From Candidatus Bathyarchaeia archaeon (GTDB taxonomy: Archaea; Thermoproteota; Bathyarchaeia; Bathyarchaeales; Bathycorpusculaceae): a stretch of 40,767 bases of DNA. Positions within the stretch are counted from its first letter, which is position 1; the number at the start of each line of letters is the position of its first letter. Under the pieces are notes generated by a model. It saw only the letters and a list, made by a program, of their open reading frames with translations, ran no database searches and had not been told where the DNA came from. Positions 2,789 through 36,224 of this stretch are shown in pieces. Position numbers and translations under genes: made by a program. The DNA lies in NCBI GenBank assembly GCA_050012755.1, contig JBEKGO010000024.1, positions 1 through 40,767 of the forward strand. The letters are read 5' to 3'.

Positions 2789-3484
2789 ATGAAAGATATT
2801 ATGAATATTTTTCTTGAAGCTGGAACTTTCAGGATGTTTGTCTCAGCAATTCAAGCTGCGGAACTAATTGATACCCTCAGAGGTACTGATCCCTTAACTG
2901 TTTTTGCACCAAATGATGAAGCGTTCGCCAAACTCCCCAAAGGCGCGTTTGACGATCTTCTAAAGAACGTTCCAAAGTTAAAGGCAATTCTAATGTACCA
3001 TATAATTGCTGGAAAACATACAATTAACCAAATCAGTAAAATGAATTCCGCGAAAACAATTCAAGGCCAAGAAGTCAAAATTGACGGCCACAAGTGGCAT
3101 CTTCACGTGACCCCGAAAATCAATGACGCAAACATTACAAATTACAACCTCGTAACAGACAACGGCATAATTCATGTCATAGATAGAGTGCTTATGCCAA
3201 ATATGAAGCTAACTTGCCCCGTGTGCGGGATGGGTTTCATGACACTGGAAGCTTTGAATGCTCATACTAAAATGGGTCATGTCGTTGAGAAAGTATCAGA
3301 GCCAAGGCTAGAAGTTGAAAAAGCTACTGAACCAATGTCAGGCATTTCATCTCAAGAGACTCCACTGAGTGGTTTAGAACCTAATCAGGTCAAATGTCCT
3401 GACTGTGGAAGAACCTTCAAGAGTCATTCGGAGATGGAGAGGCACAGAGACACAACTCATCATGAAACAAAAGGACACGATTAA
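2789..3484 (+). CDS. Fasciclin (FAS1) domain protein with two C-terminal C2H2 zinc fingers
   Basis: TVFAPNDEAF, ILMYHII, NGIIHVIDRVL (FAS1). CPVC-x12-H-x4-H and CPDC-x12-H-x4-H. AGGAGG RBS upstream. Confidence 0.9.
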   Translation: MKDIMNIFLEAGTFRMFVSAIQAAELIDTLRGTDPLTVFAPNDEAFAKLPKGAFDDLLKNVPKLKAILMYHIIAGKHTINQISKMNSAKTIQGQEVKIDGHKWHLHVTPKINDANITNYNLVTDNGIIHVIDRVLMPNMKLTCPVCGMGFMTLEALNAHTKMGHVVEKVSEPRLEVEKATEPMSGISSQETPLSGLEPNQVKCPDCGRTFKSHSEMERHRDTTHHETKGHD

Positions 3485-6364: not shown

Positions 6365-6946
6365 TCATTTTTCTTCTTTGGTTATCTCTTTTCCAATTGA
6401 GAACACTTGTCCCACGGCTTTCCCAACTTTATGATATGCCATCCCTGAAGGATTCCAGATTATGGGTTTCACTTTTTCAATGTCTGGAAGGTTCTCCTCA
6501 TTGAGCACAAGAGAATCAGCTTTGACATCCATGATTTCACCTATAAACTCCGTGTGTAAGCCGATTTCAACTATTTTTAGAACTTTGCACTCTATAATCA
6601 ACGGAAATTCTTTCACATAGGGCGCATCAACAAGATCGCTTTTCACAGGAGTAAGCCCTGTTGCCGCGAATTTATCCACCGTTTTTCCCGAAGTGAGGCC
6701 AAAATAATCAGCCTCCTTGACATAGTTTTCAGATGGAATGCTCACTGTAAACGCTTTCCGCTCCACAATATTATTGTAGGTATACGTGGCTTTTCTGAGA
6801 GATACATAGATGCATGGCGGTTTGGAACAACATACTCCTCCCCAAGCAGCAGTCATAACATTTGGTTTTCCCTCTCGATCAAAAGTTCCTACAACCCAAA
6901 CAGGAGTCGTGGGAACGATGGTTTCTGCACCTAAAGATTTTTTCAT
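6365..6946 (-). CDS. Flavin reductase-like protein (flavoredoxin family)
   Basis: MKKSLG...[10 protein letters not shown]...[10 protein letters not shown]...ECKV...[17 protein letters not shown] supports a start at 6946. Confidence 0.9.
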
Positions 6947-6979
6947 AGGAAACCTCCTTAACATTCTGTCTTTTGAGCA

Positions 6980-7825
6980 CTACTCTGTTTTCAATGCAGA
7001 AACTTTTATGCTTACCACTGTGTTGGCTGCTTCCTTTACCTCTTCCTCTGTCATGTTTGCCATTTTGATTGCTTCTTTCAATGTGGATTCACTTATGATG
7101 TATTCAAGCGGGTAAGTTTTTTCTTCTATGACTTTTACTTCTTTGAATCCAGCTTTTCGCATTAGTTCAAGATATTTATCCTTAAGCTCTGCTCCCGAAA
7201 TGCATCCAGCATACGCTTCAACATTATTTTGAATAGATTCAGGCAACTCTTTTAAGAGAACAATGTCCGAAACCATCAATCGTCCCTTTGGAGCAAGAAC
7301 TCTGAATGCTTCTTCAAACACTCGCTTCTTGTTTGGGGCGAGGTTGATTACGCAGTTTGATATTATAACGTCGACTGAATTGTCTGCGACAGGAAGATTT
7401 TCAATTTCTCCTAGTCTGAACTCGACGTTTGTGTATTTGCCTTTTCTTGCGTTAGCTCTTGCTTTGTCAATCATTTCGGGAGTCATGTCTACTCCTATTA
7501 CTTTGCCTTTTTTGCCCACTTTGTTGGCAGCTAAGAAGCAGTCAAAGCCTGCCCCTGCACCTAAATCAAGAATTGTCTCCCCTTCTTTTAGCGATGTCAT
7601 AGCCGTTGGATTACCACAGCCAAGTCCCAAATTTGCCCCTTCAGGAACGGCGGTCATCTCAGCTTCACTGTAACCTATCATGCTGCATACTTCCTTGTTA
7701 GTTGGAGCCGAGCAACAGCTAATAGGTGATGCGCAACAAGAGCCATTGGTTTTGGCAACTTTGGCGTATCGATTTCTAACAAGTTTCTTAATTTTTTCTT
7801 CTTTCTTTTCCATACTGTTCACCAT
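6980..7825 (-). CDS. arsM: Arsenite S-adenosylmethionine methyltransferase
   Basis: [33 protein letters not shown] and N-terminal CC pairs; directly downstream of arsR. Confidence 0.93.
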
Positions 7826-7826
7826 T

Positions 7827-8156
7827 CTATCTGCAAGTCATTTGATCCAGAACCTCTTTCGTTAGTACGTTGACAAGCTCTGGCGTTAAATCGTCAACAA
7901 TATTGTGTATTCTGGGATCGACAATTGAATACATTCGTTTTGTTCCTTCTTTTCGGCATCTGACTATTCCGGTTTCTTTGAGGATTCTTAAGTGGCGTGA
8001 AACGAGCGGTTGAATTAGATTTAGATGTGGAACGATTTCGCAGACGCATTTTTCTCCGTCTCTCAAATATGCTATTATTTCGAGTCTGATTGGATCGGAG
8101 AGAGCGTAGAAAACTGTTGATTTGAAGCGATTCTGGTTTTCCACTTTTGCAGACAT
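7827..8156 (-). CDS. arsR: ArsR/SmtB metalloregulator
   Basis: [12 protein letters not shown]...EKCVCEI...QPLVSRHL. Start uncertain (8156 or 8180). Confidence 0.9.
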
Positions 8157-8227
8157 GGTTTGATTTAGTGTTGATAACAATATTTAAAAGTTGCTATGAA
8201 TAATCGAAATGAAATAAGGCAACAGAT

Positions 8228-8533
8228 ATGTCTGAAGAAACTTGGCACGGAATTCCCCGAAGCAAGATACTCTGGTATCCTACAATAGACTACGAAAAAT
8301 GCATCAGCTGCGGAAAATGCGTGGAATACTGCAAACTCGGAACCTATGAATTTGAAGAAATCAAAGGCAAAAAGATGTCAGTTGTGAAAAATCCAACTAA
8401 TTGCGTTGTACTCTGCAATGGGTGCGATGCAATATGCCCTGCCCACGCTATTCACCATCCCTCTAAGAAGGCAACTCGTGAGAAGATACAGGAACTCAGA
8501 AGAGACCCTTTACTAAAATTGAGAAAGAACTAA
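8228..8533 (+). CDS. 4Fe-4S dicluster ferredoxin
   Basis: CISCGKCVEYC and CVVLCNGCDAICP. Confidence 0.9.
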   Translation: MSEETWHGIPRSKILWYPTIDYEKCISCGKCVEYCKLGTYEFEEIKGKKMSVVKNPTNCVVLCNGCDAICPAHAIHHPSKKATREKIQELRRDPLLKLRKN

Positions 8534-8608
8534 GCCCATTGAAAACATCCGAGAAATTATAGATGAAATGGAACGCAAAGTCAAAGGTTAATTGAAGAAA
8601 ATGAGTGA
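8532..8608 (+). pseudogene. C-terminal remnant of an ArsC/LMW-PTP gene
   Basis: Translates as KPIENIREIIDEMERKVKG, then after a frameshift LIEENE*. Resembles the ArsC C-terminal helix (compare [15 protein letters not shown] at the end of the 9490 gene). Confidence 0.5.
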
Positions 8609-8930
8609 TGGTCACGTTAGAATTAGAGATTGGGAAGAATTCAAGCGTTTAGTTAGCGAAAAGAAGCCAAAGTCGATTGTGTTTATACTTGAGCAAAATG
8701 CTCTTTCACCAAACAAAGAACTTACAACTTTAAGAATAATATTGATGCACGACAAGCGTTACTACATCTTCCTGGATTTTCCTAAAGACCACTTCCTTAG
8801 AGAAACAAAAATTCCTTTGCACAAAGACAAAAACGGTCTATGGAATCTTGATGAGGCTGAGGTGAAAAATATATTGAAGAAGCAATTTGAAAAAGAGAAC
8901 GTGGAAGTGTTTTCTTTTTGGACTACTTAA
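8601..8930 (+). CDS. Hypothetical protein
   Basis: Intact ORF with protein-like composition; no motif recognised. Confidence 0.7.
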   Translation: MSDGHVRIRDWEEFKRLVSEKKPKSIVFILEQNALSPNKELTTLRIILMHDKRYYIFLDFPKDHFLRETKIPLHKDKNGLWNLDEAEVKNILKKQFEKENVEVFSFWTT

Positions 8931-9011
8931 AAGACGAAACAACTACTTCTATAAATAATATATTGACCATGTTTTTATGGTTCAAAAAGAATCGTATAAG
9001 GATGAGTCTTA

Positions 9012-9488
9012 ATGGTTGAAACTAAGGTTTTGTTTTTGTGCACTCATAATTCAGCTCGGTCTCAGATAGCTGAAGGTCTCCTTAGACATTTGTATGGCGA
9101 TGAGTATGAGGTTTTTAGTGCTGGAACAAATCCCATGCAGGTCAATCCTTTAGTCATTAAGGTTATGGATGAAATCGGGATAGATATTTCTGGGCAATAT
9201 TCTAAAAGCCTCGATGTTTTCAAAGATGTCGATATCGACCTGGTTGTATCAGTTTGCCGCAGCAGCTCAAAAATAAACTGTGCCATTTGCGCCTCACCAA
9301 TAGTTATGGGTAGACCTGAGTTGATTCGTTCAAGATTGCCTAAAGCTAAGGATTATCTGGATCATCCTTTCGATGACCCTTCCGAAGTGCAGGGAACTGA
9401 AGAAGAAAAACTTGAGGCCTTCCGTCGTACAAGAGATGAAATGAAAAAGTGGATAATCGAGGAGTTTAGTAACTTGAGGTGGGCGTGA
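9012..9488 (+). CDS. arsC: Arsenate reductase ArsC (LMW-PTP fold) with a CxxC-bearing insertion
   Basis: P-loop [25 protein letters not shown]. Confidence 0.88.
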
Positions 9489-9489
9489 G

Positions 9490-9939
9490 ATGGGAAAAAC
9501 TAAAGTCATTTTTCTATGCACAGGAAATTCGGCACGGAGCCAAATGGCAGAGGCATTTCTGAGGAAATATGCTGGTGATTATTTTGAGGTTTACAGTGCA
9601 GGCTTCGAGACTCGACCTATTCACCCCTACACTATTAAGGTGATGAAAGAGCTTGGTTATGACCTAAGTGGTCACCGTTCAAAGAACTTGTCGGAGTATC
9701 TTGGAAATATACATTTTGGGATAGTCATAACCGTATGTGTAAAAGCAGAAGAGGCGTGCCCCACCATACCGGGAGTATCCACAAGAATGTATTGGCCCTT
9801 CGAAGACCCAGCGGCATTTCAAGGGACAGAAGAAGAAAAACTGGCAAAATTCCGTGAAATTCGCGACAAAATTAACGAAAAAATAAAAGCATGGTTGAAA
9901 GAAAGATGCATAACGGAAACTGAAAACCCTCATTTTTAG
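9490..9939 (+). CDS. arsC: Arsenate reductase ArsC (thioredoxin-coupled type)
   Basis: [15 protein letters not shown]-x6-CP, WPFEDP. Confidence 0.92.
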
Positions 9940-10184: not shown

Positions 10185-10958
10185 TCAACAAGATGTTGCT
10201 TTGCTTGAGAAGTTAGGTCCGCAGCATCTTGGGTTGTCATAGTAGTCGCGGCAAACCTGCATAAGGCTCTGGTCCTGAGTCAAAAGCGCACTTTCACTCG
10301 GCCAGTTAGTGAGCGTCACGAGATTTCTCATGTCTGAAATGAACATCGCTAGACTACAGTAAAGAATCCTAACCTCACCTAGGTCTGAGAGGTCTTGGCT
10401 ATTTGCGATTTCAGGAGTTACAGCTAAGTTAAGTTTAACTCTTCGTTTTTCTTTAGCGTCTCTCAATGCTGGGTGAATTTCCCTGACTACTTCAGGTAAT
10501 GTCATGAACATGGTTATTTCTTGCTTCGAAGCTTGAATTAGACTTTTCATGCGGTTGACGATACTTTTTTGTCCACGCAGGATGTAGGCGATTTCAAGTT
10601 CTTCAGGTTTCTCCGAGCTATCGTAGATCGGCGTCAACTTACTTGCAATGATATCGGCCTGCTTGATTTTCTCGTCTAGCTCGTCCTTTAGCTGCTGTTT
10701 GACGTTGGCAACCGCTTCATTTGGTGCAATGGGACGATAAACTGCCGGAGTGCTTTGCTGCATAGTAAGCATACCTTTTTTTGACAAGCTATCTAGTGCA
10801 TAGTATATTTTTGAGTCAGGGATTTTGGTTTCATTACAGAGCGCACTCGCTGTTATGTTGGGATGCGCCAAAAGTGCGATGTACGTTAGGGCTTCGTGGG
10901 TTGAGAGCCCGAGGTCTTTGAGCTGTGAGACTATCTGATTTAACGCACCATTTTCCAT
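10185..10958 (-). CDS. TrmB-family transcriptional regulator with Cys-rich C-terminus
   Basis: LKDLGLSTHEALTYIALL...IPDSKIYYALDSLSKKG wHTH plus effector domain; tail VCRDYYDNPRCCGPNFSSKATSC. Confidence 0.9.
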   Translation of the reverse strand: MENGALNQIVSQLKDLGLSTHEALTYIALLAHPNITASALCNETKIPDSKIYYALDSLSKKGMLTMQQSTPAVYRPIAPNEAVANVKQQLKDELDEKIKQADIIASKLTPIYDSSEKPEELEIAYILRGQKSIVNRMKSLIQASKQEITMFMTLPEVVREIHPALRDAKEKRRVKLNLAVTPEIANSQDLSDLGEVRILYCSLAMFISDMRNLVTLTNWPSESALLTQDQSLMQVCRDYYDNPRCCGPNFSSKATSC

Positions 10959-11006
10959 CGCTATTAGCCTTCTACTGTTTTCTGATAAGTATATGTGAGA
11001 AAACTG

Positions 11007-11040
11007 TTATATAGTTTTTTCTACTACTAAAAAGTAGTAG
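11007..11040 (+). promoter_or_regulatory. hgcA promoter: TATA (TTATATA, 11007-11013) and perfect operator palindrome CTACTACT-AAAA-AGTAGTAG (11021-11040)
   Basis: 8-bp perfect inverted repeat between the TATA box and the hgcA ATG. Confidence 0.8.
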
Positions 11041-11051
11041 AGAATGAGAAC

Positions 11052-12101
11052 ATGAGTAAACAATCATGTAACTGCACTGACGCAAAAACAGGCACAAACG
11101 TGCCAGACAAATCACTTCCAGAAATACTACCAACAAGCTGGTCAACAGGCAATGCTGAATTAAAAGATCACATTCTAGCCCGCTTGGGTGTCTATCGACT
11201 AAATCACCGCGTAGCACCTGGTTTGTACTCTTTAGGACAGCCAACTCAAAAGTCGCCCGTCTTTGTCTCCGCAAATTATACTTTGAGCTTTGATGCATTG
11301 CGGTCTTCTTTGAAGGAGACTGACGCCTACATCCTGGTTTTGGATACACAGGGAGTTAACGTTTGGTGCGCTGCAGGCAAAGGTACCTTCGGCACCGACG
11401 AGTTAGTAAGCAAAATAAAAACCACCAATCTTGCCGATGTCGTCTCCCACAGAAATCTAATTCTGCCACAGCTTGGCGCCTCGGGCGTTAACAGCTTTGA
11501 AGTGGAAAAACAAAGCGGCTTCAAAGTTGAGTATGGACCCGTGCGAGCTAATGACCTTCAAGAATATCTAAAAACTGGCAATGCAACCTCTGAAATGCGC
11601 CAAGTAAAATACACACTCAAAGACCGCTTAGTGTTAATACCCGTTGAACTTAGTGTTGCTGCCCTTCCACTTATTGCAGGCGTCATTGCTTTATACCTTC
11701 TTGGCGGCGTTTACCCTGCATCAGCGGTTGCTGTCTCGATGTTGGCAGGCACTGCCTTGTTTCCTATAGTTTTGCCTTGGCTGCCAACAAAAGACTTCAG
11801 CTCTAAAGGCTTCATGCTAGGAGCTATCTTAGCATTGCCCTTTGCAGCAGTTGCCTTTCTGTTTCACTCCGACTCGGTGATGTGGTTGCGAATCGCCTTG
11901 GGGTCGACTTACGTCTTCCTTATGGCGCCAGTCACAGCCTACCTTGCATTGAACTTCACCGGTTCAACAACCTTCACAAGTCGAACTGGCGTTAAGAAAG
12001 AAATCTTCCGCTACATTCCAGCCATGGCAGCATCACTAGTAATCGGCGCAGTATTAGCAGGAACAGTGATTGCTATGCATTATTTGGGAGGTGCAATTTA
12101 A
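11052..12101 (+). CDS. hgcA: Mercury methylation corrinoid protein HgcA
   Basis: Cap-helix motif NVWCAAGK; PGLY, ANYTLSFD, LILPQLGA, YGPVRA; C-terminal TM domain with NFTGSTTFTSRTGVKKEI; overlaps hgcB. Confidence 0.95.
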   Translation: MSKQSCNCTDAKTGTNVPDKSLPEILPTSWSTGNAELKDHILARLGVYRLNHRVAPGLYSLGQPTQKSPVFVSANYTLSFDALRSSLKETDAYILVLDTQGVNVWCAAGKGTFGTDELVSKIKTTNLADVVSHRNLILPQLGASGVNSFEVEKQSGFKVEYGPVRANDLQEYLKTGNATSEMRQVKYTLKDRLVLIPVELSVAALPLIAGVIALYLLGGVYPASAVAVSMLAGTALFPIVLPWLPTKDFSSKGFMLGAILALPFAAVAFLFHSDSVMWLRIALGSTYVFLMAPVTAYLALNFTGSTTFTSRTGVKKEIFRYIPAMAASLVIGAVLAGTVIAMHYLGGAI

Positions 12102-12379
12102 TGTTCAACTCCTACCAACAAACCACCCTACAATACGACAAAGCAAAATGCGTCGGTTGCGGTAAATGTAGCACCGTTTGCCCACACAGAGTCTTCACCC
12201 AATATGGAAACAAAGCAGAGCTTATAGATGCCTCAGCTTGCATGGAATGTGGCGCTTGCCAACTTAACTGCCCCGCAGGTGCAATAAGCGTAGACAGCGG
12301 AGTAGGATGCGCAGGCGGAATGATTCGGGCAGCCCTTAGAGGAGAAAAACTTGATAAAGCCAACTGCACCTGCGGATAA
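12101..12379 (+). CDS. hgcB: Mercury methylation ferredoxin HgcB
   Basis: CVGCGKCSTVCPH, CMECGACQLNCP, GVGCA and C-terminal CTC; TAATG stop/start overlap with hgcA. Confidence 0.93.
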   Translation: MFNSYQQTTLQYDKAKCVGCGKCSTVCPHRVFTQYGNKAELIDASACMECGACQLNCPAGAISVDSGVGCAGGMIRAALRGEKLDKANCTCG

Positions 12380-12498
12380 AAGAGATAACGAATACATGAG
12401 CGAGCCAGAGCTCGCCTTCAAAATAAGACAATCTCAATTTTACGACAAGAAAAGGAGAATTCGAATGAAATATATTCATAGGAATCAGACCCTTTAGT

Positions 12499-12936
12499 TT
12501 ATTGGGGTTCTAAGAGTACTGCAAGTCTGTCTTTGATGCTTTTTAGCTTGTCTATGTATGGAGCTATCTTTGATTTGTCAGATTTGGCTATGTCTTCGAG
12601 GTACAAGATGTAGCTGTTCATCTCTGTTACCATCTCATCCACCGTTCGTGGCTGTTTTGTTGACGTCCCCCACGGCCACATATAATCTTGGTCAGCTTTC
12701 TCTGTGAGCTCATATTTGCCGTCTTCTCGTTTTTGAATGATTCCCTCTTTTTGCATTTCATCTAGCAACGGATATACCGAGCCTGGAGAAGGTCTCCACC
12801 ACCCTTGGCTCATCATTTCTATCTGATCTATTAACTCGGCACCATTTCTCGGCGCCTGACGCAGCATTGAGACCAGCATCATTCGTAAGCCTCCTCTTCT
12901 GTGAGGCCCCATGCCCATTCTTGGGTTAAACCACAT
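12499..12936 (-). CDS. PadR-family transcriptional regulator
   Basis: RGGLR...GAELIDQI...WRPSPGSVYPLL...YELTEK. GGAGGTGAT RBS supports a start at 12936. Confidence 0.9.
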   Translation of the reverse strand: MWFNPRMGMGPHRRGGLRMMLVSMLRQAPRNGAELIDQIEMMSQGWWRPSPGSVYPLLDEMQKEGIIQKREDGKYELTEKADQDYMWPWGTSTKQPRTVDEMVTEMNSYILYLEDIAKSDKSKIAPYIDKLKSIKDRLAVLLEPQ

Positions 12937-12965
12937 TTCTATATCACCTCCAACCATCCTAAGTT

Positions 12966-12983
12966 ATATCGATTATTCGATAT
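12966..12983. promoter_or_regulatory. Putative PadR auto-operator ATATCGA-N4-TCGATAT
   Basis: 7-bp perfect inverted repeat about 30 bp upstream of the padR start. Confidence 0.55.
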
Positions 12984-13094
12984 CGTTTATACGATGTACA
13001 AATCAATAAATGTTTCGGTTTTTGGCAGTTATTTAATTCTAAACATCGCGTGGTGCGCTGAGTAAAGTCTTCGTTTCCAACTCAGCTCTTTGTT

Positions 13095-13310
13095 TCAGTT
13101 TATATTTGCATCTATAATATCTTCTAAATCCCCTGTTCTGACAAAAATGAGTGCTTGAACCTCGCCTTCCTTCTCATAGCTTATGATGGCAAGCTTATCT
13201 CCGCCTTTTACGGAAAGTTTACTTCTCAATTCGTTAGGCAGTACAAATTGCCCTCGTTTACCAACGGTTACTATCCCTTCGATCTTGTACTGAATGTCAA
13301 CTTCGCTCAT
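13095..13310 (-). CDS. AbrB/MazE-fold protein resembling HgcAB-associated HgcC but lacking cysteines
   Basis: IVTVGKRGQFVLPNELRSKL-x3-GGDKLAIISYEKEGEV; lies about 0.7 kb from hgcB. Confidence 0.75.
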   Translation of the reverse strand: MSEVDIQYKIEGIVTVGKRGQFVLPNELRSKLSVKGGDKLAIISYEKEGEVQALIFVRTGDLEDIIDANIN

Positions 13311-13333
13311 GTTCCCTTGCTCAACTGAGAGGT

Positions 13334-13912
13334 TCACGCCTGTGATTTAATCCAGTTCAGGATATTTGGTGGGTTTCTTTTTCCTGACCCGAATTTTACC
13401 CTTGGTTGACCTAAAATCAAGGGAACTTGCACTTCGTAGCCACTTGGCACTCCTGCAGCTTTCAAGACATCGGGGTTTTTCTGGTTCATTATATCAATGA
13501 AGCCCATATAGCATGTTCCCAACTCTAATTCATACGCTTTCAAGAACATGTTTTGAGCTGCAAGCACACTGTCAAGCAAATTAAGCCGACTGCGAATTGG
13601 GTCAGCAACTTCGGTACATATTAGAACTAGAACGGGAGCATTGTAGCAAACAACATCAGCATCTGTCTGAAAGAAAGAGCCGTAGCGTTTTTGTCCTTCC
13701 GGTGATTCGTTGAAGAATTCTTTAGTTTTGTCTGAAACTAGCTTAATTACGCTCTCGTCCTCGATTATAATGAAACGCCAAGGTTGTACGTTGGTTGCGC
13801 TAGGTGCCCAGACGGCAGCTTCCAAGATGGCTTCAATTTTCTCTTTCGGTATCGGCTTATCTGCAAACGCTCTTACACTTCTTCTACTTTTAATGCAATT
13901 GTCAAGTTCCAT
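13334..13912 (-). CDS. Nitroreductase family protein
   Basis: IKSRRSVRAF, APSATNVQPWRF, AAQNMFLKA, LGTCYMG. Confidence 0.92.
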   Translation of the reverse strand: MELDNCIKSRRSVRAFADKPIPKEKIEAILEAAVWAPSATNVQPWRFIIIEDESVIKLVSDKTKEFFNESPEGQKRYGSFFQTDADVVCYNAPVLVLICTEVADPIRSRLNLLDSVLAAQNMFLKAYELELGTCYMGFIDIMNQKNPDVLKAAGVPSGYEVQVPLILGQPRVKFGSGKRNPPNILNWIKSQA

Positions 13913-13930
13913 TTTTTTCCCTCTATTTTT

Positions 13931-13962
13931 CTACTTACAAAAAGTAGTAGTAAGCTATTTAA
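13931..13962 (-). promoter_or_regulatory. Second copy of the hgcA operator (CTACTACT-TTTT-GTAAGTAG on minus strand, 13931-13950) just downstream of TATA TTAAATA
   Basis: 17/20 identical to 11021-11040; also positioned between the TATA box and the start codon. Confidence 0.7.
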
Positions 13963-14012
13963 GGCTAATCTGATTCTTTCTTACTAGAAAAAGGAAGAAA
14001 GCTGCCTCAAGC

Positions 14013-14357
14013 TTAGATTCGATTTTGAGTTGGAGTTGCAGGATTGATTGCTTTCTGTATTACTTCGGTTAGTTTCTCGATAGAGGGCACGCCGCCGTAG
14101 AGTACCAATTCGCGGTTTATGAACAAAGCAGGCATTACATCCATGCCATACTTGTTAAGGAGAGGCTGCAATTTTCGGAGATACTCAGCTTTGGGGCTGT
14201 AGATCGCAGTGGTAAAAGTTAATAGTTCCAATTCGGCGTCGATTTTTGCTTTGGCTAGCACTTCTCTTATTTTCACTTTGTATTGCTGGTCAAGGGGTGC
14301 TAATGATGGATTGCAGCATGAGGCTGAAAGAATATCGATTTGCATTTTACTGCTCAT
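14013..14357 (-). CDS. ArsD-like / thioredoxin-fold metallochaperone
   Basis: ASCCNP vicinal Cys; MPALFINRELVLYGGVPS; overlaps the arsA stop. Confidence 0.7.
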   Translation of the reverse strand: MSSKMQIDILSASCCNPSLAPLDQQYKVKIREVLAKAKIDAELELLTFTTAIYSPKAEYLRKLQPLLNKYGMDVMPALFINRELVLYGGVPSIEKLTEVIQKAINPATPTQNRI

Positions 14358-15264
14358 AAAGGTACTCTCCCACCTTTCGCAGGTTTTGAATTCCATAGAC
14401 ATCGGTTTCGAAGAGAGGAACTTCTTTTTGCAGTATTCCATTGAACCTGGTGGCTATTTCTTTGAAGTATTTTTCCTGTGTGGCCCTTCGTTTTTCCAAG
14501 AACCAGTTGCCCTTAAGAACGTCGGGCGGAATTACTTCGTTGACGATTAATGCCGGGACTTTTACACCAAAGTTTGACAGGTCGCTAATTGCCCGCGCTG
14601 TCTCTTCAATTGGCAACCTTTCGGGTAACAGGACAAGGTTGAATGCAGCTATGTTTTCATCTGATAGGCTCTTCACTGCCTGGTCGTATCGCAGTTTCTC
14701 TTTTTTCAATCGTTCCAGCGTCTGTTCATCGTTAGCCACACCCAATGCCACTGCCAGTTCCTTGCGATTATTAATCTGGCTTGTCATGTAGACTGACCAG
14801 TCAAACGGCATAGATAGCTCCCTTAGCGTTTTACCTGTAGGTGCCGTGTCGAAAACCACGCGGTCATGCTCAGTATCGCCGAGATAGGTAACGAATTGGT
14901 CAAAAGCAGCCATCTCTTCTGCACAGGGAGTGCTGACGGCTTCTTTTCCGAAAAGACCCTCAAAGCCCTGCATCATTCCTTCTAGTCTCTTTTGAAAAAC
15001 ACCAGTTGCTTTTTTAGGGTTGATGTTTAAGCCGCAAAGGTTTTTCACAGTTTCTATCTTGGTGATTTCTGTTTCGCTGATTTTCTGTTCATATGTAGCT
15101 GAAAGGCTAACTGTAGGGTCCGTGGCTACGATAAGGGTTTTGTAGCCGTTGTCGGCCAACCATGTTGCTGTAGCCGCGGCCATTGTGGTTTTTCCTACGC
15201 CTCCTTTTCCGCCGAAGAACAGGAATTTTCGGTTTTCTACTATTTCTCTTAGGTTTTTCTGCAT
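14347..15264 (-). CDS. arsA: ArsA/GET3-family ATPase (single ATPase domain)
   Basis: GKGGVGKTT, STPCAEEMAAFD, FDTAPTG. Confidence 0.88.
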   Translation of the reverse strand: MQKNLREIVENRKFLFFGGKGGVGKTTMAAATATWLADNGYKTLIVATDPTVSLSATYEQKISETEITKIETVKNLCGLNINPKKATGVFQKRLEGMMQGFEGLFGKEAVSTPCAEEMAAFDQFVTYLGDTEHDRVVFDTAPTGKTLRELSMPFDWSVYMTSQINNRKELAVALGVANDEQTLERLKKEKLRYDQAVKSLSDENIAAFNLVLLPERLPIEETARAISDLSNFGVKVPALIVNEVIPPDVLKGNWFLEKRRATQEKYFKEIATRFNGILQKEVPLFETDVYGIQNLRKVGEYLYEQ

Positions 15265-15300: not shown

Positions 15301-15527
15301 TTATAAGTTTTCGTGTCGGCATCCGATAGCGGCACACAAATCGCAGACGAGGCAGTCAGAGATTACGCGGCTCACTTCAGACGAAAATAATTCTGATCCT
15401 AAAGAATGAGCAGCTTTGCGGAGTGGAAATCATGCGCCGACTTAGAATAAAAATTCCAAGAACAATCTATCCTGAACTTGAGGTTTTAAGAAAGAAAGGC
15501 TTGATCATCACAAAGTTGAAACAAAAA
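15301..15527 (+). pseudogene. Decayed copy of the promoter and N-terminal wHTH of the 16169 PadR-like gene
   Basis: 15301-15328 matches 16141-16168 at 26/28. ATG is replaced by GCG and there is a +1 frameshift. Encodes LCGVEIMRRLRIKIPRTIYPELEVLRKKGL versus LCGVDIMRQLRIKSPGTIYPVLEVLRNKGL. Confidence 0.8.
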
Positions 15528-16168: not shown

Positions 16169-16924
16169 ATGGTGTTCAAGGTGGAAACGTCAAAATCTGA
16201 AATCGCCGGTTCACTTCAAGTAAAAATAATGATGGTTCTGAGAGATGAAAGACTTTGCGGGGTAGACATCATGCGTCAACTCAGAATCAAGAGTCCTGGC
16301 ACAATTTACCCAGTGCTTGAAGTTCTGAGAAATAAAGGGTTAGTCGATTATACAGTTGAAACGTCGGGGGCAGTTCGAAAGAAAGTATATTCCCTAACAA
16401 ATACTGGGAAAAAGGAAATTCGAGACCATCTAACTCAATCTGCAAGATTATGCTGCGACATCCCCGCGCACATCGCCAAAATCTTAGAAAACGCAAGGGG
16501 TTTGGTAGAAATCAAACGCCACCAAAAAGTCCTCTGCACTCTAGAATATGAGGAGATCAAGCATTTCCTAAAAGGCGCCGACATAACCTTTTCAAGCGAT
16601 CTAAGCGTTCCCGCAGATTCCTATGAAATGGCATTGAGTTTTTTGGGGGTCCGATGCTTAATTGGCAAAGAAAACACAGACATCGCCGATTACGTGAAGC
16701 GCCTGTACAAAAGCTTGAAGAGGGGTGGTTCTCTGTTAGCTATCGAAATTGAAAAAACGGATAACCTGTTCAGCCAAATCCTATTTAATGATGTTTATGG
16801 TTTAAAGGAACCTCCAGGATTGCAAACGGAGGAATTAAAGAGCATTCTGGAAAAAAATGGATTTGCCACTGCGAAGGTCACAAGCAAAAATGGCTTGCTT
16901 TATGCTGTTGCAAAGAAAACATAA
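16169..16924 (+). CDS. PadR-like wHTH fused to a degenerate class I SAM-methyltransferase-like domain
   Basis: SPGTIYPVL...RKKVYSLTNTG; RLCCD linker; RLYKSLKRGGSLLAIE...LEKNGF MTase-like C-half with no clear GxGxG. Confidence 0.75.
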   Translation: MVFKVETSKSEIAGSLQVKIMMVLRDERLCGVDIMRQLRIKSPGTIYPVLEVLRNKGLVDYTVETSGAVRKKVYSLTNTGKKEIRDHLTQSARLCCDIPAHIAKILENARGLVEIKRHQKVLCTLEYEEIKHFLKGADITFSSDLSVPADSYEMALSFLGVRCLIGKENTDIADYVKRLYKSLKRGGSLLAIEIEKTDNLFSQILFNDVYGLKEPPGLQTEELKSILEKNGFATAKVTSKNGLLYAVAKKT

Positions 16925-31557: not shown

Positions 31558-31851
31558 ATGTCTGAAACAATCACCCTGAGATTACCGCCCCAAACAGCAA
31601 AGAAACTCCAAGAAATCGCCAAAAAAGAAGGCAAAGACCGCTCAACCCTCATACGTGAACTTCTTGAAAACGGCGTTAAAGAAAAAAGCGTAGAGCAAGC
31701 CGTTGAACTCTACCGAACAGGGCAGGTTACGGCTTGGAAAGCTGCGCAGTTAGCTGGAGTTTCGTTGTGGGCTTTCTACAAAATATTAGAACAGAAAGGC
31801 ATCATCTTTCAGTATTCTGAACACGATCTAGAGCAAGACTTGAAAACTTAA
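31558..31851 (+). CDS. UPF0175-like RHH/HTH antitoxin
   Basis: TITLRLP...DRSTLIRELL...AVELYRTGQVTAWKAAQLAG. Confidence 0.85.
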   Translation: MSETITLRLPPQTAKKLQEIAKKEGKDRSTLIRELLENGVKEKSVEQAVELYRTGQVTAWKAAQLAGVSLWAFYKILEQKGIIFQYSEHDLEQDLKT

Positions 31852-31866
31852 GGAGCAACAGACGCC

Positions 31867-32403
31867 ATGCCCCCAACAGTCTCAAACACTAGCCCCCTTA
31901 TTTGGCTTGCCAAAATTGGCAAACTCAACTTGCTCAAAGATCTTTTTGATGAAGTCCTGGTTTCGGAAGAAACCTACAAGGAAGCAGTAGAAGTAGGTCT
32001 GCGAGAAGGCTACAGTGACGCGTTAGTAATCAAGGATGCTTGCGACCAAGGATGGGTCAAAGTTGAGCGGCTTGATGAAAAACAGGTTGCGATTTGCCAG
32101 AAAATAATGCGGCACAGTTTTGAACTCCATGAAGGTGAAGTTAAGGCAATAGTGCTAGCTCGCGAAATTGGTAAGGACGCGCTTCTTTTGATGGATGACT
32201 CTAGTGGTCGAGCCTTTGCTGAAACTTGGGGCTTAAAAGTCAAAGGAGTACTCTACGTCATAATCACAGCCATGCGGAATGACTTATTAGATACGACTGA
32301 GGCAAAGGAGGCAGTGCTAAATTTGGTAGGTAGAGGGTTCAGAATTGAACCAAAGTTTTTGGCAAAAATAATTCAAGAAATCGAAAAAGAAAATATGCAA
32401 TAA
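31867..32403 (+). CDS. DUF3368-like PIN-domain toxin
   Basis: VSNTSPLIWL, LHEGEVKAIVLA, LLMDD. Confidence 0.88.
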   Translation: MPPTVSNTSPLIWLAKIGKLNLLKDLFDEVLVSEETYKEAVEVGLREGYSDALVIKDACDQGWVKVERLDEKQVAICQKIMRHSFELHEGEVKAIVLAREIGKDALLLMDDSSGRAFAETWGLKVKGVLYVIITAMRNDLLDTTEAKEAVLNLVGRGFRIEPKFLAKIIQEIEKENMQ

Positions 32404-32442
32404 GCAAACCATTGATGAGACTTCGACAATCTTATCGGTAGA

Positions 32443-32475
32443 AGGTGACTACAAAACGCACAAATGTAGTCACCT
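32443..32475. repeat. 11-bp perfect inverted repeat AGGTGACTACA-N11-TGTAGTCACCT
   Basis: Directly visible; function unknown. Confidence 0.75.
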
Positions 32476-32498
32476 CGCATCGGTAACCTATCGGATAA

Positions 32499-32545
32499 TC
32501 TGGTCTGACGTACAGAAGGGTACCGGTTCGAATCCAGGCTGCCTA
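32499..32545 (+). pseudogene. Degenerate tRNA 3' half (possibly tRNA-Val GAC)
   Basis: Anticodon-like arm TCTG(G)T-CTGACGT-ACAGA, short variable loop, T-arm GGTTCGAATCC; no D-arm or 5' acceptor strand recognisable. Confidence 0.55.
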
Positions 32546-32638
32546 ATGTTTTTCTGCATCACTTTTATGCCAAATACTTACAATAAATATTGGAAAACGT
32601 TTTAAGATACAAATATTTTGGACGAAAAGAGTGTTTAA

Positions 32639-32891
32639 TCACTTGTAGACTTTCTTTCTCAGTTCAACATCATGAAAGATAATCGACTTGTCTTTTTCGT
32701 CGATTTCATACAGTAGCCTATATTTTCCAACCTTTAACTTCCATAGCCCTCTCAAAGGACCTACTAACATAATGCCGCCGTAAGGTTTAAGAAGAATTTC
32801 TTTGATGGCTTCTGTTGTTCTTGATTTAATGCCTTTTGACATTTTTCCTTATTTTCTTAGAAAAATCTTAGAACTTGGCCTTATATGGCAT
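32639..32891 (-). pseudogene. RelE/ParE toxin disrupted at its 5' end
   Basis: C-part LRGLWKLKVGKYRLLYEI...RKKVYK. The ATG at 32891 (MPYKAKF*) is out of frame with the C-part, and that frame has its own stop just upstream of 32842. Confidence 0.75.
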
Positions 32892-32892
32892 A

Positions 32893-33114
32893 TTACTTCA
32901 GGATCTTTTCTAAGTCATTCATGGAACATTCAACGTATTGGCCTTTGGTAACTTGCTCTTTGCTTTTTTCTATTGTATCTAATGCTTCTTTGTCGGCAAG
33001 CGTTTCTAAAGTTTCAAGAATCTGCTCCATTTTAACGTATGTTCCAAGGATCTCTCTGAAAAGGTCTTCAGGAATGACAATTCCTTCCTTAGTGACCTTA
33101 ACTCTTGCTTCCAA
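32893..33114 (-). CDS. Cognate antitoxin of the RelE-like gene
   Basis: ILETLETLADKEALDTIEKSKEQ pattern; directly upstream of the toxin. Confidence 0.75.
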   Translation of the reverse strand: MEARVKVTKEGIVIPEDLFREILGTYVKMEQILETLETLADKEALDTIEKSKEQVTKGQYVECSMNDLEKILK

Positions 33115-33230
33115 TTAATTGCACCTTAATAATAAACTGGTTAAACTGCTTAAATCCTTTCAGTACGCGGTTATTTTTCAGCGAAAAAGTTATGTGTTAC
33201 ATTGTAGTCTCTGTATTTTGGAGTGAGAAG

Positions 33231-33539
33231 ATGGTCGAGGTTGAAAAAAGCAGCGTTGTTACGGTTCGTTTGTCAAAGAGAAATCTGCGTAGAGTTGAGG
33301 CTGTTAGGGCCCTTGAAAATGTTGACCGCTCCACATTATTTAAAGAGTTCATCGAGGATGGTTTGCGCGAGCGCGTTGTGCGTTTGTATACGAAGGGCAA
33401 ACTGAGTGCAGGTCGTGGTGCGGAGATTTTAGATATTTCGCTTCGAGAGTTTTTGGAGTTGCTTGAGCGTGAATGCGTTGCCGTTAACTGGGATTCCGAA
33501 GGCATAGCGAAATATTTGAAATCTAAATATGGAGAATAG
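33231..33539 (+). CDS. UPF0175-like antitoxin
   Basis: VVTVRL...DRSTLFKEFI...LYTKGKLSAGRGAEILDIS. Confidence 0.85.
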   Translation: MVEVEKSSVVTVRLSKRNLRRVEAVRALENVDRSTLFKEFIEDGLRERVVRLYTKGKLSAGRGAEILDISLREFLELLERECVAVNWDSEGIAKYLKSKYGE

Positions 33540-34086
33540 GCGCTTGGTTGCGGTAGTTTCTGATGCGGGACCGCTGATTCATCTATCGCAAATTGACAAA
33601 CTATTTTTGTTAAAGAAGCTTTTTGGGGTTGTGTTTGTTACTGAGAAAATTAAGGTTGAGGTTTTTGATGAGGGGTTGCGGCTTGGTTGTGTTGATGCTC
33701 AAGTGGTCAGTGAGGCTTTGTCGGATGGTTGGCTTCGGGTTGAACCTGTTTCTGAACGTTTAGTTGGGTCTGCTCTCAAGCTGGCTGAAGGTGAGAATAT
33801 TTCGAGGGCAGATGCTGAAACGCTTTTGCTGGCTGTTGAGAAAAAAACTGCGTTGTTGGTTGATGAAAGGTTGCTTTCGGATCTTGCTAAAATGTATAAG
33901 CTCAGGGTTTGGAGTACATGGACGTTGCTTCTGGAAAGCTTAGCTCCGGATTATTTAGTGTTGGATGAGGTTGAAGGTGCTGTTGAGGAGTTAGGCAACA
34001 GGAAGTTTAGGTTAAGTGCTAAACAATCAGAGGAAATTTTAGGTGCAGCTAAATTCATTGAAAAGCACAAAGGAAAGTTGGGCTAA
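33529..34086 (+). CDS. DUF3368-like PIN-domain toxin
   Basis: VVSDAGPLIHL, ADAETLLLA, LLVDE. Confidence 0.85.
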   Translation: MENRRLVAVVSDAGPLIHLSQIDKLFLLKKLFGVVFVTEKIKVEVFDEGLRLGCVDAQVVSEALSDGWLRVEPVSERLVGSALKLAEGENISRADAETLLLAVEKKTALLVDERLLSDLAKMYKLRVWSTWTLLLESLAPDYLVLDEVEGAVEELGNRKFRLSAKQSEEILGAAKFIEKHKGKLG

Positions 34087-34232
34087 GAGTTAAGGAATTT
34101 CTTGAAAAACAAAGGATGGACTCATCAGTCGATAAGTTTTCTTTTAGGTAGTTCTTAGCTCAACGGGTTTTTCCGACCGCAATAGTTAAGTTGTACTTTT
34201 TGTATTTGTTGTACTTGGAGTTGAAGTTGAAT

Positions 34233-34463
34233 ATGGAGGATGTTTTAGTAACTCGCAAAGGGCAAATTACAGTTCCTGTTGCGTTGAGACGCAAATATGG
34301 AATAAAAGAGGGCATGAAAATGTCGGTTAGAGATTCAGGCTCAAGTATAATTCTACAGATTGTACCAAGAATCGAAGATCTGGTTGGTGTTGACGCTGGA
34401 AAAATAGATGCGAAAAAAGCCGTAGAAATGTTGGATAAAATGCGTTCAGAAGACAGATATTAA
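34233..34463 (+). CDS. AbrB/MazE-type antitoxin (VapB)
   Basis: VTRKGQITVPVALRRKYGIKEG; TTGTA repeats upstream could be operators. Confidence 0.88.
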   Translation: MEDVLVTRKGQITVPVALRRKYGIKEGMKMSVRDSGSSIILQIVPRIEDLVGVDAGKIDAKKAVEMLDKMRSEDRY

Positions 34464-34867
34464 TGAGAGCCGTGTTGGACACTCGGTTCTTTATAGATAG
34501 CTTCACAAGCAACAACGAGCAATTCAAAAAATGGGCAAGAGCAACCCTTCAAGCACTCCAAACAAAAGGTAATCTAGGTGTTGTCCCATCGATAGTAATA
34601 CATGAATTCTATAAAATCCAACTAGAAAACTTGGGGAAAGACATTGCCGAATTAAGAATTACCTCTATTCTCAAATCAGATCTTAACGTGGCAAATCTTG
34701 ATTCAGCTATAGCGATAGAAGCTGCAAAGCTCCGGTGCAAATACGCTGAATTGCCAACCGCTGACGCTGTAATAGCTGCCACAGCCATTATAATGTCTTG
34801 CGAATATGTTTTAACCGATGACAAGCATATAAAACAGATTAAAGAAACCAAAACAAAATGGATTTAG
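34463..34867 (+). CDS. VapC PIN-domain toxin
   Basis: VLDTRFFI, VIHEF, LPTADAVIAATA, LTDDKH. Confidence 0.9.
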   Translation: MRAVLDTRFFIDSFTSNNEQFKKWARATLQALQTKGNLGVVPSIVIHEFYKIQLENLGKDIAELRITSILKSDLNVANLDSAIAIEAAKLRCKYAELPTADAVIAATAIIMSCEYVLTDDKHIKQIKETKTKWI

Positions 34868-34980
34868 CAAACAAAAAAGATTCAAGACGAAATTTGAAAG
34901 AACAAACCAGATGCTTCCCCGTGCATTAAGTTTTGAGCAACCTTAACATAGAGAAACTGCTGTTTTCTGGTTTGATCTTG

Positions 34981-35826
34981 TTAAAAATCCCAGAGTGTGT
35001 TTGCGCTGTGTTGAGCTTTTTCTATAATTGACAGCACGGTTGCTTTGGGTAATCCTGTTTTCCTTTCAATCGTTAATCTGTCTTGGTCAAACAACTGTTT
35101 TATAAGAACAATTCCCGAGTCAACTAGCCTTCGTCTTTCTTCAACGCTTACTCCTCTGAGGCAACTAAGCGGATATAACTTATTTTTTTCAATAGCATCC
35201 CGCAGTCCAAAGTGTTCAGGTGAAGTCCATCCTATCTGTATGATATTCTTGCATTTACCATATTGAATTGCCTGCTCTGAATATCTGGTGTTGGTAACTA
35301 TAACCGCGCGGTCAATTTTTAGGTCAGTTAAGCCAAGCGTAAACGCATCTGTAACGTCTTCCAGCACTGCCCACGCTATTCGACTTTCATCCAGCCCCGT
35401 TAAGGCGTGATAGTTGAAATGATGCTTAACCTCAACAAAATAAGTAACTCCATCCTTTCTTGCGATGCCGTCTACCTCATGTTCACCGCATTTTCCCCTA
35501 AGAATCTGATTAGGCGTAACCTCAAAACCAGTATGTGCCAACAAAACCTGTATGAACAATTCAAATTCTGGTTTGGACTCCATTAGGCTTATGCCTCGTT
35601 TTAAGTCGAAAAGGTGACTAACAGCAGGCCTGTATTTCCTCATATACGTGAAAATTAGCTGGAGAATCTTCTGAGTTGTTATGTCTTCATATAGTCTTTT
35701 TTCAATTCGCTCTGCAACTTCATTAGCAATGTAGCTGTCTGCGCCCATCCTTAGGCAAGTCTGCACAATTTTTTCTCTGCTAAACAACTGTTTGGAGCCG
35801 TTTGCTTTGGTAACGAGAAATGCCAA
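34981..35826 (-). CDS. ATP-cone + Mrr-like PD-(D/E)xK restriction endonuclease
   Basis: VTKANGSKQLFSREKI (ATP cone); FELFI...EHEVDGIA...VEVKHH...IVTNTRYS. Probable TTG start at 35826. Confidence 0.85.
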   Translation of the reverse strand: MAFLVTKANGSKQLFSREKIVQTCLRMGADSYIANEVAERIEKRLYEDITTQKILQLIFTYMRKYRPAVSHLFDLKRGISLMESKPEFELFIQVLLAHTGFEVTPNQILRGKCGEHEVDGIARKDGVTYFVEVKHHFNYHALTGLDESRIAWAVLEDVTDAFTLGLTDLKIDRAVIVTNTRYSEQAIQYGKCKNIIQIGWTSPEHFGLRDAIEKNKLYPLSCLRGVSVEERRRLVDSGIVLIKQLFDQDRLTIERKTGLPKATVLSIIEKAQHSANTLWDF

Positions 35827-36035
35827 GTTGCATGCACCAGCTAGAGAGAAAAATACGTAGGTTGCAGTTTTAAGTTTATTCAATTCTCAGGGGGTTTGAT
35901 TCTTTTGTGAGATCCCTTTGAGCCGAGTGAAAAGCAATAATACACGATTAGAGATACTGTGGTGTTTGACTTTTCAATCTTTCAGCAACTACACCTAAAA
36001 AAACACAGACATTTTATAGCTACATAAGTTCTGCA

Positions 36036-36081
36036 AACATACTGTCTGATTCTTCTGTTAGCTGGTCATCCCAGCATTCCC
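36036..36081. repeat. 46-bp direct repeat, right copy
   Basis: 44/46 identical to 31402-31447. Confidence 0.9.
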
Positions 36082-36224
36082 AACACACATTATCTCATAA
36101 ACTAACGAACTGCCTGATTTGTTTTCTTTACTACAAACTTCTATTTGTTTGTGGTCGTTGGTGTCATGAAGTCTGGCTATTGATTTGAGCACCACAATTC
36201 TTAAAACTATATTAAGATATAAGA

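Follow-up and report, generated by a model that had tools for sequence, protein, structure and literature searches.

The mercury methylation gene hgcA of a Candidatus Bathyarchaeia archaeon faces a divergently oriented gene coding for a TrmB-family regulator across a short intergenic region that contains a palindromic operator. We have characterized this locus in a stretch of 40,767 nucleotides (assembly GCA_050012755.1, contig JBEKGO010000024.1), termed the window in the following, and in numerous related loci. Throughout the family, the regulator gene co-occurs with the operator, which is located just downstream of the TATA box of the divergent target; the targets are in most cases arsM or ArsM-like genes, a set of cysteines is conserved in the protein, and the hgcA-linked regulators form a single clade nested within the family. 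In light of these features, we favour, with modest confidence, an interpretation in which the protein would act as a repressor sensing As(III) or organoarsenicals on a TrmBL2-like fold, as a functional analogue of ArsR that has captured hgcAB once. The system is real, conserved and apparently undescribed; rather than an hgcAB regulon, it would be viewed most fittingly as an ars-type regulon of archaea by which hgcAB was captured. An earlier note on the same DNA had described a trmB gene with a cysteine-bearing C-terminus divergent from hgcA and a perfect palindrome between the TATA box and the start codon of the latter, and had paired a thiol-rich TrmB protein with this palindrome in repressor position. 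Open reading frames and profile matches were found as described, the palindrome is exact and the pairing is supported; the dominant association with arsM and the operator on the trmB side (O2) were both missing from that account. We refer to the source genome of the window as G000, to other genomes by G numbers and to loci by L numbers. The central part of the locus is organized as follows:

10185–10958, minus strand: trmB regulator open reading frame, 257 residues, with a winged helix-turn-helix, a coiled coil and a PLD-like C-terminal domain
10975–11003: O2, trmB-side element, here a degenerate operator, with the top score in the genome (27.0 bits, O2 matrix)
11007–11014, plus strand: TATA box of hgcA, TTATATAG (conserved columns −12 to −5; family consensus TTAAATAG)
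11021–11040: O1, operator forming a perfect palindrome, CTACTACTAAAAAGTAGTAG, which is predicted to overlie the start of hgcA transcription
11052–12101, plus strand: hgcA, mercury methylation corrinoid protein (NF040863, 415 bits, cut-off 275)
12101–12379, plus strand: hgcB, ferredoxin (NF040864, 112 bits, cut-off 99)

The cap-helix motif of HgcA proteins, N(V/I)WCA(A/G)GK, is present in the translation of hgcA as NVWCAAGK, and HgcB terminates in CTCG, lacking the CC pair that is the usual form of its tail.

The regulator combines a winged helix-turn-helix domain (PF01978, residues 13–79, 62.5 bits at a cut-off of 25.6) with a C-terminal effector-type domain of the PLD-like kind (PF11495, 32.2 bits at a cut-off of 22.2). 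A sugar-binding profile was matched at positions 4–125 of 233 only, with its second half missing, and the scores against the equivalogs of the sugar-sensing proteins TrmB and TrmBL1 (41–68 bits, cut-offs 500–650) and of TrmBL2 (NF041141, 45.7 bits, cut-off 530) fall below threshold, while the ArsR/SmtB models PF01022 and NF033788 gave no match to the regulator. An AlphaFold2 model with a mean predicted local distance difference test score of 87.5 displays a TrmBL2-like succession in which a winged helix is followed by a coiled coil and a PLD-like domain, and TrmBL2 and TrmB rank at the top of structure and profile searches (Foldseek, E = 1.8e-13; hmmsearch, E = 4.8e-26).

The C-terminus of the protein reads VCRDYYDNPRCCGPNFSSKATSC. 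Among 120 near homologues, C41 is conserved in 120, C201 in 119, C246 in 117 and C245 in 114, whereas C236 and C257 are found in only 68 and 28. The cysteine tail emphasized in the earlier note is consequently retained in part, and the conserved thiols consist of C201 and the C245/C246 pair as core and not of the entire tail. At least three cysteines in loop and tail are found in 117 of the 119 untruncated near homologues, the two exceptions carrying a displaced CxC motif, and the three near homologues with a single tail cysteine all contain a CC pair in the loop. The protein of L024 contains the CC pair, and those of L080 and L095 are truncated. Ordinary TrmB relatives are devoid of a cysteine set of the C41/C201/C245/C246 type. 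In distant members from Asgard archaea, Sysuiplasma and Ferroplasma, the cysteines of loop and tail are mostly kept and C41 is sometimes lost. The AlphaFold2 model places C201 at the end of a strand (196–199), residues 246–247 in a beta-bridge and C41 within a helix (37–44).

The operator is a trait of the regulator family. Of 112 loci collected, 109 contained enough upstream DNA, and in 102 of these a palindrome with up to four mismatches is located at −100 to −70 of the regulator start, with near-invariant arms; this count comprises 18 exact copies and 77 distinct 20-mers and includes duplicates and the window's own copies. The conserved arms encompass 7 bp, as opposed to the 8 bp proposed initially, and define the core CTACTAC-N6-GTAGTAG. 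Read towards the target, the family cassette consists of an O2 element resembling TTCTAGTAAGTAGTTGTCAGAGAA, the TATA sequence TTAAATAG, four mostly T bases and the operator core. Within the window, two palindrome matches compare to an expectation of 0.06. Of 301 family genomes, 27 contain a pattern of TATA box plus operator; these belong without exception to the 41 trmB-positive genomes, the 260 others contain none, and a reversed control gave no match. Operator-type sites occur about once per genome, and the operator is kept in class-level families whose regulators share 32–43% identity. At an E-value of at most 0.001, 510 homologues of the regulator were identified, close ones carrying the label Ca. 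Bathyarchaeota, and the family extends, by source names, to Asgard archaea, Sysuiplasma and Ferroplasma, the homologue of the latter belonging to the WP_021788146 cluster. Searches of plasmid and viral sequences returned nothing relevant, and a sample of the phylum yielded 4 of 351 genomes, all within the order of G000.

In archaea, transcription begins some 25 nt beyond the TATA box. O1 is located 6 nt past the TATA box TTATATAG and 11 nt ahead of the hgcA start codon. This TATA box is predicted to serve both directions and O2 to be the autoregulatory site of trmB. At the position of O2, operator-like sequences scoring 17–24 bits are found in L154, L156 and L157, and in distant members (family f30) the element is a near-perfect operator. 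The arrangement suggests that two sites flank one TATA region, one over the start of the target and one over that of the regulator.

The genes behind the operator were surveyed in 84 of 122 loci, retained after removal of near-duplicates and with at least 1.5 kb of upstream sequence, by considering divergent genes within 1.9 kb and assigning labels by tblastn and motif. The targets are arsM in 35 loci and an ArsM-like methyltransferase in 19; another 19 have only AhpD-like or small membrane proteins, 7 have hgcA and 4 have only a nitroreductase. With arsM or ArsM-like genes in 54 of 84 loci and hgcA limited to one derived clade, the regulon is not centred on hgcAB, as had been supposed in the earlier note. 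The cut-off of NF008823 (263 bits) is passed by all six operator-linked near-type ArsM proteins tested, and the same model is the best match, below this cut-off, of three ArsM-like proteins (166–177 bits) and four arsM products of family f30 (246–257 bits). The gene arsN2 follows hgcB in G165, G257, G533, G538 and L020, and in L150 it occupies the first target position; two of three candidates tested pass the ArsN2 profile cut-off, the open reading frame in G257 being short. An additional operator site in G138 precedes another AhpD-arsM operon at the end of a contig.

Two groups within this survey deserve separate mention. The ArsM-like type (L025–L052 and others), which is uncharacterised, has a very cysteine-rich N-terminus and lacks a GLGCG motif, with two later cysteine motifs being kept. 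A subclade comprising L122, L123, L125–L127, L135, L139–L142 and L144 combines a single tail cysteine with a changed recognition helix and an operator that has diverged. The genes behind this operator are AhpD-like and membrane genes, arsM is absent and a C-GCAxxG-C-C gene frequently lies downstream; the signal has perhaps changed.

In the genus, hgcA is found in 5 of 120 genomes, and all five show the synteny of trmB, palindrome and hgcA, for which the earlier note had proposed a check of relatives. A quick phylogenetic tree (LG+G4, with the SH-aLRT likelihood-ratio test as only support measure, 61 rows chosen from about 125) groups the hgcA-linked regulators in one clade (SH-aLRT 100) nested among ArsM-like-linked lineages. 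Deeper branches precede arsM, arsN2 or nitroreductase genes, and a single change explains the target label. Rooting by paralogues of G000 led to long-branch joins and was dropped. Recognition helix and operator are unchanged within the hgcA clade.

Several variants of hgc genes were noticed. On the 2.7-kb contig of L132 (G034:C117), which is possibly misbinned, an ArsR gene stands ahead of hgcA. In G533 (L160:7946–9271), hgcA continues in frame into hgcB to form an open reading frame of 441 residues, with a frameshift-like junction that is possibly an assembly error. In G198 (L134:4936–6872), and similarly in G159 and G237, a CpaM methyltransferase is fused to an HgcA-like domain (NVWCSARGG), with a ferredoxin gene after it, an HgcC-like gene before it and arsC and arsM nearby.

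In the window, a second copy of the cassette precedes a nitroreductase gene and an HgcC-like gene:

13095–13337, minus strand: HgcC-like gene of AbrB/MazE fold, overlapping the nitroreductase stop codon (NF040962, PF04014)
13334–13912, minus strand: nitroreductase-family flavoprotein (PF00881)
13931–13950, minus strand: O1', second copy of the operator, reading CTACTACTTTTTGTAAGTAG in coding-strand orientation, three mismatches to O1
13955–13962, minus strand: TATA box TTAAATAG belonging to the nitroreductase-hgcC unit, with the family-typical spacing of 4 nt to the operator
13966–13994, minus strand: O2', duplicate of the element on the trmB side, ranking second in the genome at 17.3 bits

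O1' is located 18 nt ahead of the nitroreductase start codon, and the HgcC-like open reading frame scores 69.1 bits against NF040962, 0.9 bits short of its cut-off of 70. By a 16-base pattern alone, O1' is unremarkable, since it is one of 13 sites in the genome with three mismatches. To this extent the genome scan did not single it out; it did so with matrices trained on 71 operators from which all hgcA-linked loci had been excluded. These assign 29.7 bits to the hgcA site, 21.2 bits to the nitroreductase site, which ranks second in the genome, and 16.5 bits to the best unrelated site, which has no cassette, so that the search for a wider regulon in G000 revealed no third site. A matrix of the 64-bp cassette yields 59.2 bits at the nitroreductase compared to −26.8 at the best unrelated place; the low full-cassette score of the hgcA copy is due to a 2-nt insertion after its TATA box. 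A chance match is rejected by these scans, and the 17/20 copy noticed before is genuine and in repressor position. As O1', TATA box and O2' score as a whole cassette, we conclude that the unit of nitroreductase and hgcC acquired a duplicate of the entire cassette. Neither O1 nor O1' is an assembly artefact, since contigs from four other metagenome runs, covering one or both sites, show no difference inside them. In a scan of 744 kb from the 112 loci, just one extra site reached at least 17 bits, and it lacks a TATA box.

The same data do not tie the nitroreductase to HgcAB. Orthologues of the window enzyme carry the operator at none of the 29 best-scoring loci of the genus (66 genomes with a match), and the hgcA-positive relatives G165, G257, G533 and G538 contain one exact-pattern site each. 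With the duplicated cassette found in G000 only, no conserved link between nitroreductase and HgcAB is supported. Nitroreductases that are non-orthologous to that of the window (26–35% identity) are the first target in L023, L137, L138, L143, L148 and L149, and therefore the enzyme class recurs in the regulon, not as partner of HgcAB. Such a partnership, including the case of L023, where an enzyme sharing 26% identity with that of the window lies between operator and hgcA, was rejected.

Taken together, these features suggest the following mechanism. A dimer bound to O1 over the transcription start would block RNA polymerase, and a dimer on O2 would repress the regulator's own gene from the shared TATA box. 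As(III) or methyl-As(III), held by the three thiols of C201, C245 and C246, would cause the release of DNA. In one lineage, hgcAB, mostly together with arsN2, would have replaced an ArsM-like gene behind the cassette on a single occasion, and in G000 the second cassette copy would place nitroreductase and hgcC under the same arsenic switch. With the site of a probable arsenic-sensing repressor preceding hgcAB in this lineage, these genes would therefore be arsenic-inducible there. Binding of CTACTAC-N6-GTAGTAG by the regulator is highly probable, its action as a repressor is likely, and a trivalent arsenical as main inducer is reasonably likely, with the three judgements not being independent of each other.

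Several points weigh against this proposal. The proximity of C201 and C245/C246 in space is no more than plausible for this fold, the model having a predicted template modelling score of 0.49. The loci underlying the statistics are related by kinship, and the metagenome set comprises the best 80 of 527 by similarity. No ars gene is found within 1.9 kb in 23 of 84 loci (the 19 with AhpD-like or membrane proteins only and the 4 with a nitroreductase only), which fits a broader role in thiol stress. Given their scores below the cut-off, an arsenical substrate of the ArsM-like and f30 enzymes is putative. In G000, the organism's own arsM stands behind ArsR without an operator and ArsN2 is absent, and generality is limited by G156, where hgcAB is found with neither regulator nor operator, and by the short G034 contig with its ArsR gene ahead of hgcA.

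The strongest alternative retains operator and repression and assigns the signal to general thiol oxidation or electrophile stress, sensed by a disulfide switch of the OxsR, MsvR or SurR type, with arsM and hgcAB being mere cysteine-dependent enzymes within the regulon. We consider this rather unlikely. It gains from the AhpD-like protein, which is the second commonest neighbour (49 of 112 loci), from the non-orthologous nitroreductases as first targets in six loci, from the invariance of C41, located within the DNA-binding domain, among the near homologues and from the precedent of OxsR as a thiol redox regulator of the TrmB family (PMC9426492). Conversely, the most constant targets are arsM, ArsM-like genes and arsN2, across five families, the core consists of a three-thiol set with compensation, several distant members have lost C41 while keeping the cysteines of loop and tail, and the action of a nitroreductase on an arsenical is documented (PMC11730784).

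We regard it as improbable that the protein is a dedicated sensor of Hg(II) or other metals, or of S-adenosylmethionine or S-adenosylhomocysteine, that evolved for hgcAB with the nitroreductase of the window as HgcAB partner. The unbroken synteny in the five hgcA-positive genomes of the genus, the nitroreductase between operator and hgcA in L023, the location of hgcC under the second site and the response of ArsR2 from strain ND132 also to S-adenosylhomocysteine (bioRxiv 10.1101/2022.10.17.512643) would agree with this possibility; against it stand the share of hgcA (7 of 84 loci, in one derived clade), the unchanged DNA-binding helix and operator in this clade, the low identity of the L023 enzyme together with the lack of operators at orthologue loci, and a profile search of G000 that detected no MerA above cut-off. 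Binding of the palindrome by another factor, or a protein mainly acting as activator or chromatin organiser like TrmBL2, is very improbable, even if the closest solved structure is that of TrmBL2, titled an archaeal chromatin protein, and if O1, seen from the trmB transcript, lies upstream of the TATA box in activator position, with OxsR acting both ways (PMC9426492), since the site is confined to genomes with the regulator gene at about one per genome, is located downstream of the target TATA box and has diverged (CTTCTACTTC..GGGAGTAG) in the sole clade with the recognition helix SDTKIY or PDTKIY.

An extension of the proposed arsenic regulation, which we view as doubtful, would ascribe an arsenic-related job to HgcAB itself, as the reason for which hgcAB-arsN2 replaced the ArsM-like gene in one lineage, with an arsenical as selected substrate and methylmercury as arsenic-switched by-product in archaea of peat and sediment. 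In this view, archaea would have evolved an arsenic repressor of their own on the TrmB scaffold, ranging from Bathyarchaeia through to Asgard archaea and Ferroplasma. The retention of arsM elsewhere in G000, G165, G257 and G533 weighs against HgcAB as substitute of ArsM, as does the report of no detectable methylarsenicals in ND132 (bioRxiv 10.1101/2022.10.17.512643).

The hgcAB locus sits within an arsenic island of the window, in which an arsR-arsM-flavin reductase group is joined by two arsC-like genes and by genes for an ArsA ATPase and a thioredoxin-fold protein, and near-identical DNA is known from peat and wetland metagenomes. Its flanks contain:

within 6365–9939: on the minus strand flavin reductase, arsM and arsR, on the plus strand ferredoxin and two arsC-like genes, without a copy of the operator
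14013–15264, minus strand: genes for a thioredoxin-fold protein and an ArsA-family ATPase, likewise without a copy of the operator

The tandem arsC-like pair (9012–9939) is fused to a single open reading frame of 306 residues in L020. The gene at 16169–16924 (plus strand) codes for a PadR regulator that carries a CC pair as well as a methyltransferase-like tail, so that three cysteine-bearing regulator families, ArsR, TrmB and PadR, are found in the island. The same type of PadR is divergent from arsA in G165, G257 and G295; in the window, a flavodoxin gene lies between PadR and arsA, and a PadR fragment of 64% identity (~15357–15506) adjoins arsA. Farther away, the window contains a fasciclin domain fused to C2H2 zinc fingers (2789–3484) and a defence-like island (31558–38864) with three antitoxin-PIN-like pairs, an Mrr-type nuclease with an ATP-cone and a NurA-HerA pair.

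Neither the native role of hgcAB nor the way in which it is controlled is settled, with the arsenic link so far consisting of one ArsR system and gene neighbourhoods. The present family would likely add a new scaffold for As(III) sensing; arsenic regulators outside the ArsR fold exist, as in the MarR type. With 5 of 120 genus genomes carrying hgcA, Bathyarchaeia, here from metagenomes of peat and wetland, join the candidate mercury methylators, and the family offers a defined protein with three candidate cysteines and a 20-bp site that can be tested in vitro without culturing the organism. A literature search, which covered few subscription papers and no supplements, found no report connecting TrmB with hgcA, and titles and abstract starts revealed nothing on TrmB with arsM or arsenite in archaea or Ferroplasma; bathyarchaeial hgcA may already be contained in hgcA database tables or supplements. 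On the topic of hgcA and Bathyarchaeia, a table of MerA surfaced in PMC8261052. The regulators of hgcAB named in the consulted passages of the literature cited here, including PMC7438021, are ArsR-like, AbrB/MazE-like, GntR and MarR proteins and an unnamed putative regulator, with no TrmB among them.

In comparison with known systems, the sequence features define a member of the TrmB family that is neither a sugar-sensing TrmB nor TrmBL2 or OxsR, and that would work like an ArsR regulon without being ArsR. With the TrmB, TrmBL1 and TrmBL2 proteins of Thermococcales (PDB 3QPH, 5BPD) it shares fold and domain order, but it is only about 20% identical and differs by its own cysteine set and by an operator that is both rare and specific. 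The Haloferax volcanii protein OxsR likewise belongs to PF01978 and has a conserved functional cysteine, with sensing based on thiols, but its one domain is a winged helix, the disulfide between its subunits involves C24 and its motif is CG-rich (PMC9426492), whereas our regulator has two domains, three core cysteines and, downstream of the TATA box, a palindrome rich in AT. A further proposal of 2023 concerns HgcC, an AbrB/MazE-like gene suggested as a non-arsenic archaeal regulator of hgcAB (PMC10349881); an HgcC-like gene is present in the window as well, but downstream, as a separate unit behind the TrmB operator and not directly upstream of hgcA. A functional resemblance is predicted to the ArsR/SmtB proteins AfArsR, CgArsR and SpArsR (PMC11868830), with respect to a dimeric repressor, a palindromic operator, ars targets including arsM and the cysteine layout, as the As(III) sites of AfArsR (C95/C96/C102) and CgArsR (C15/C16/C55) combine a vicinal cysteine pair with a third cysteine. 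In contrast to these, the TrmB regulator belongs to another family, spans 257 residues, bears its thiols on a PLD-like C-terminal domain and is divergent instead of co-transcribed, with an archaeal, TATA-linked operator. In Pseudodesulfovibrio mercurii ND132, hgcAB responds to arsenic through ArsR, as shown by quantitative PCR and RNA-seq (Gionfriddo et al., bioRxiv 10.1101/2022.10.17.512643), and ArsR2 of this strain is likewise a cysteine-rich regulator adjoining hgcAB. The TrmB regulator is of unrelated fold and from a different domain of life, and while ArsR2 homologues are described upstream of hgcAB only, the TrmB family mostly precedes arsM, and this provides a direction of evolution. 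The apparent capture of hgcAB, together with arsN2, by an unrelated regulator of archaea that usually targets arsM would lend independent evolutionary support to the arsenic connection of hgcAB.

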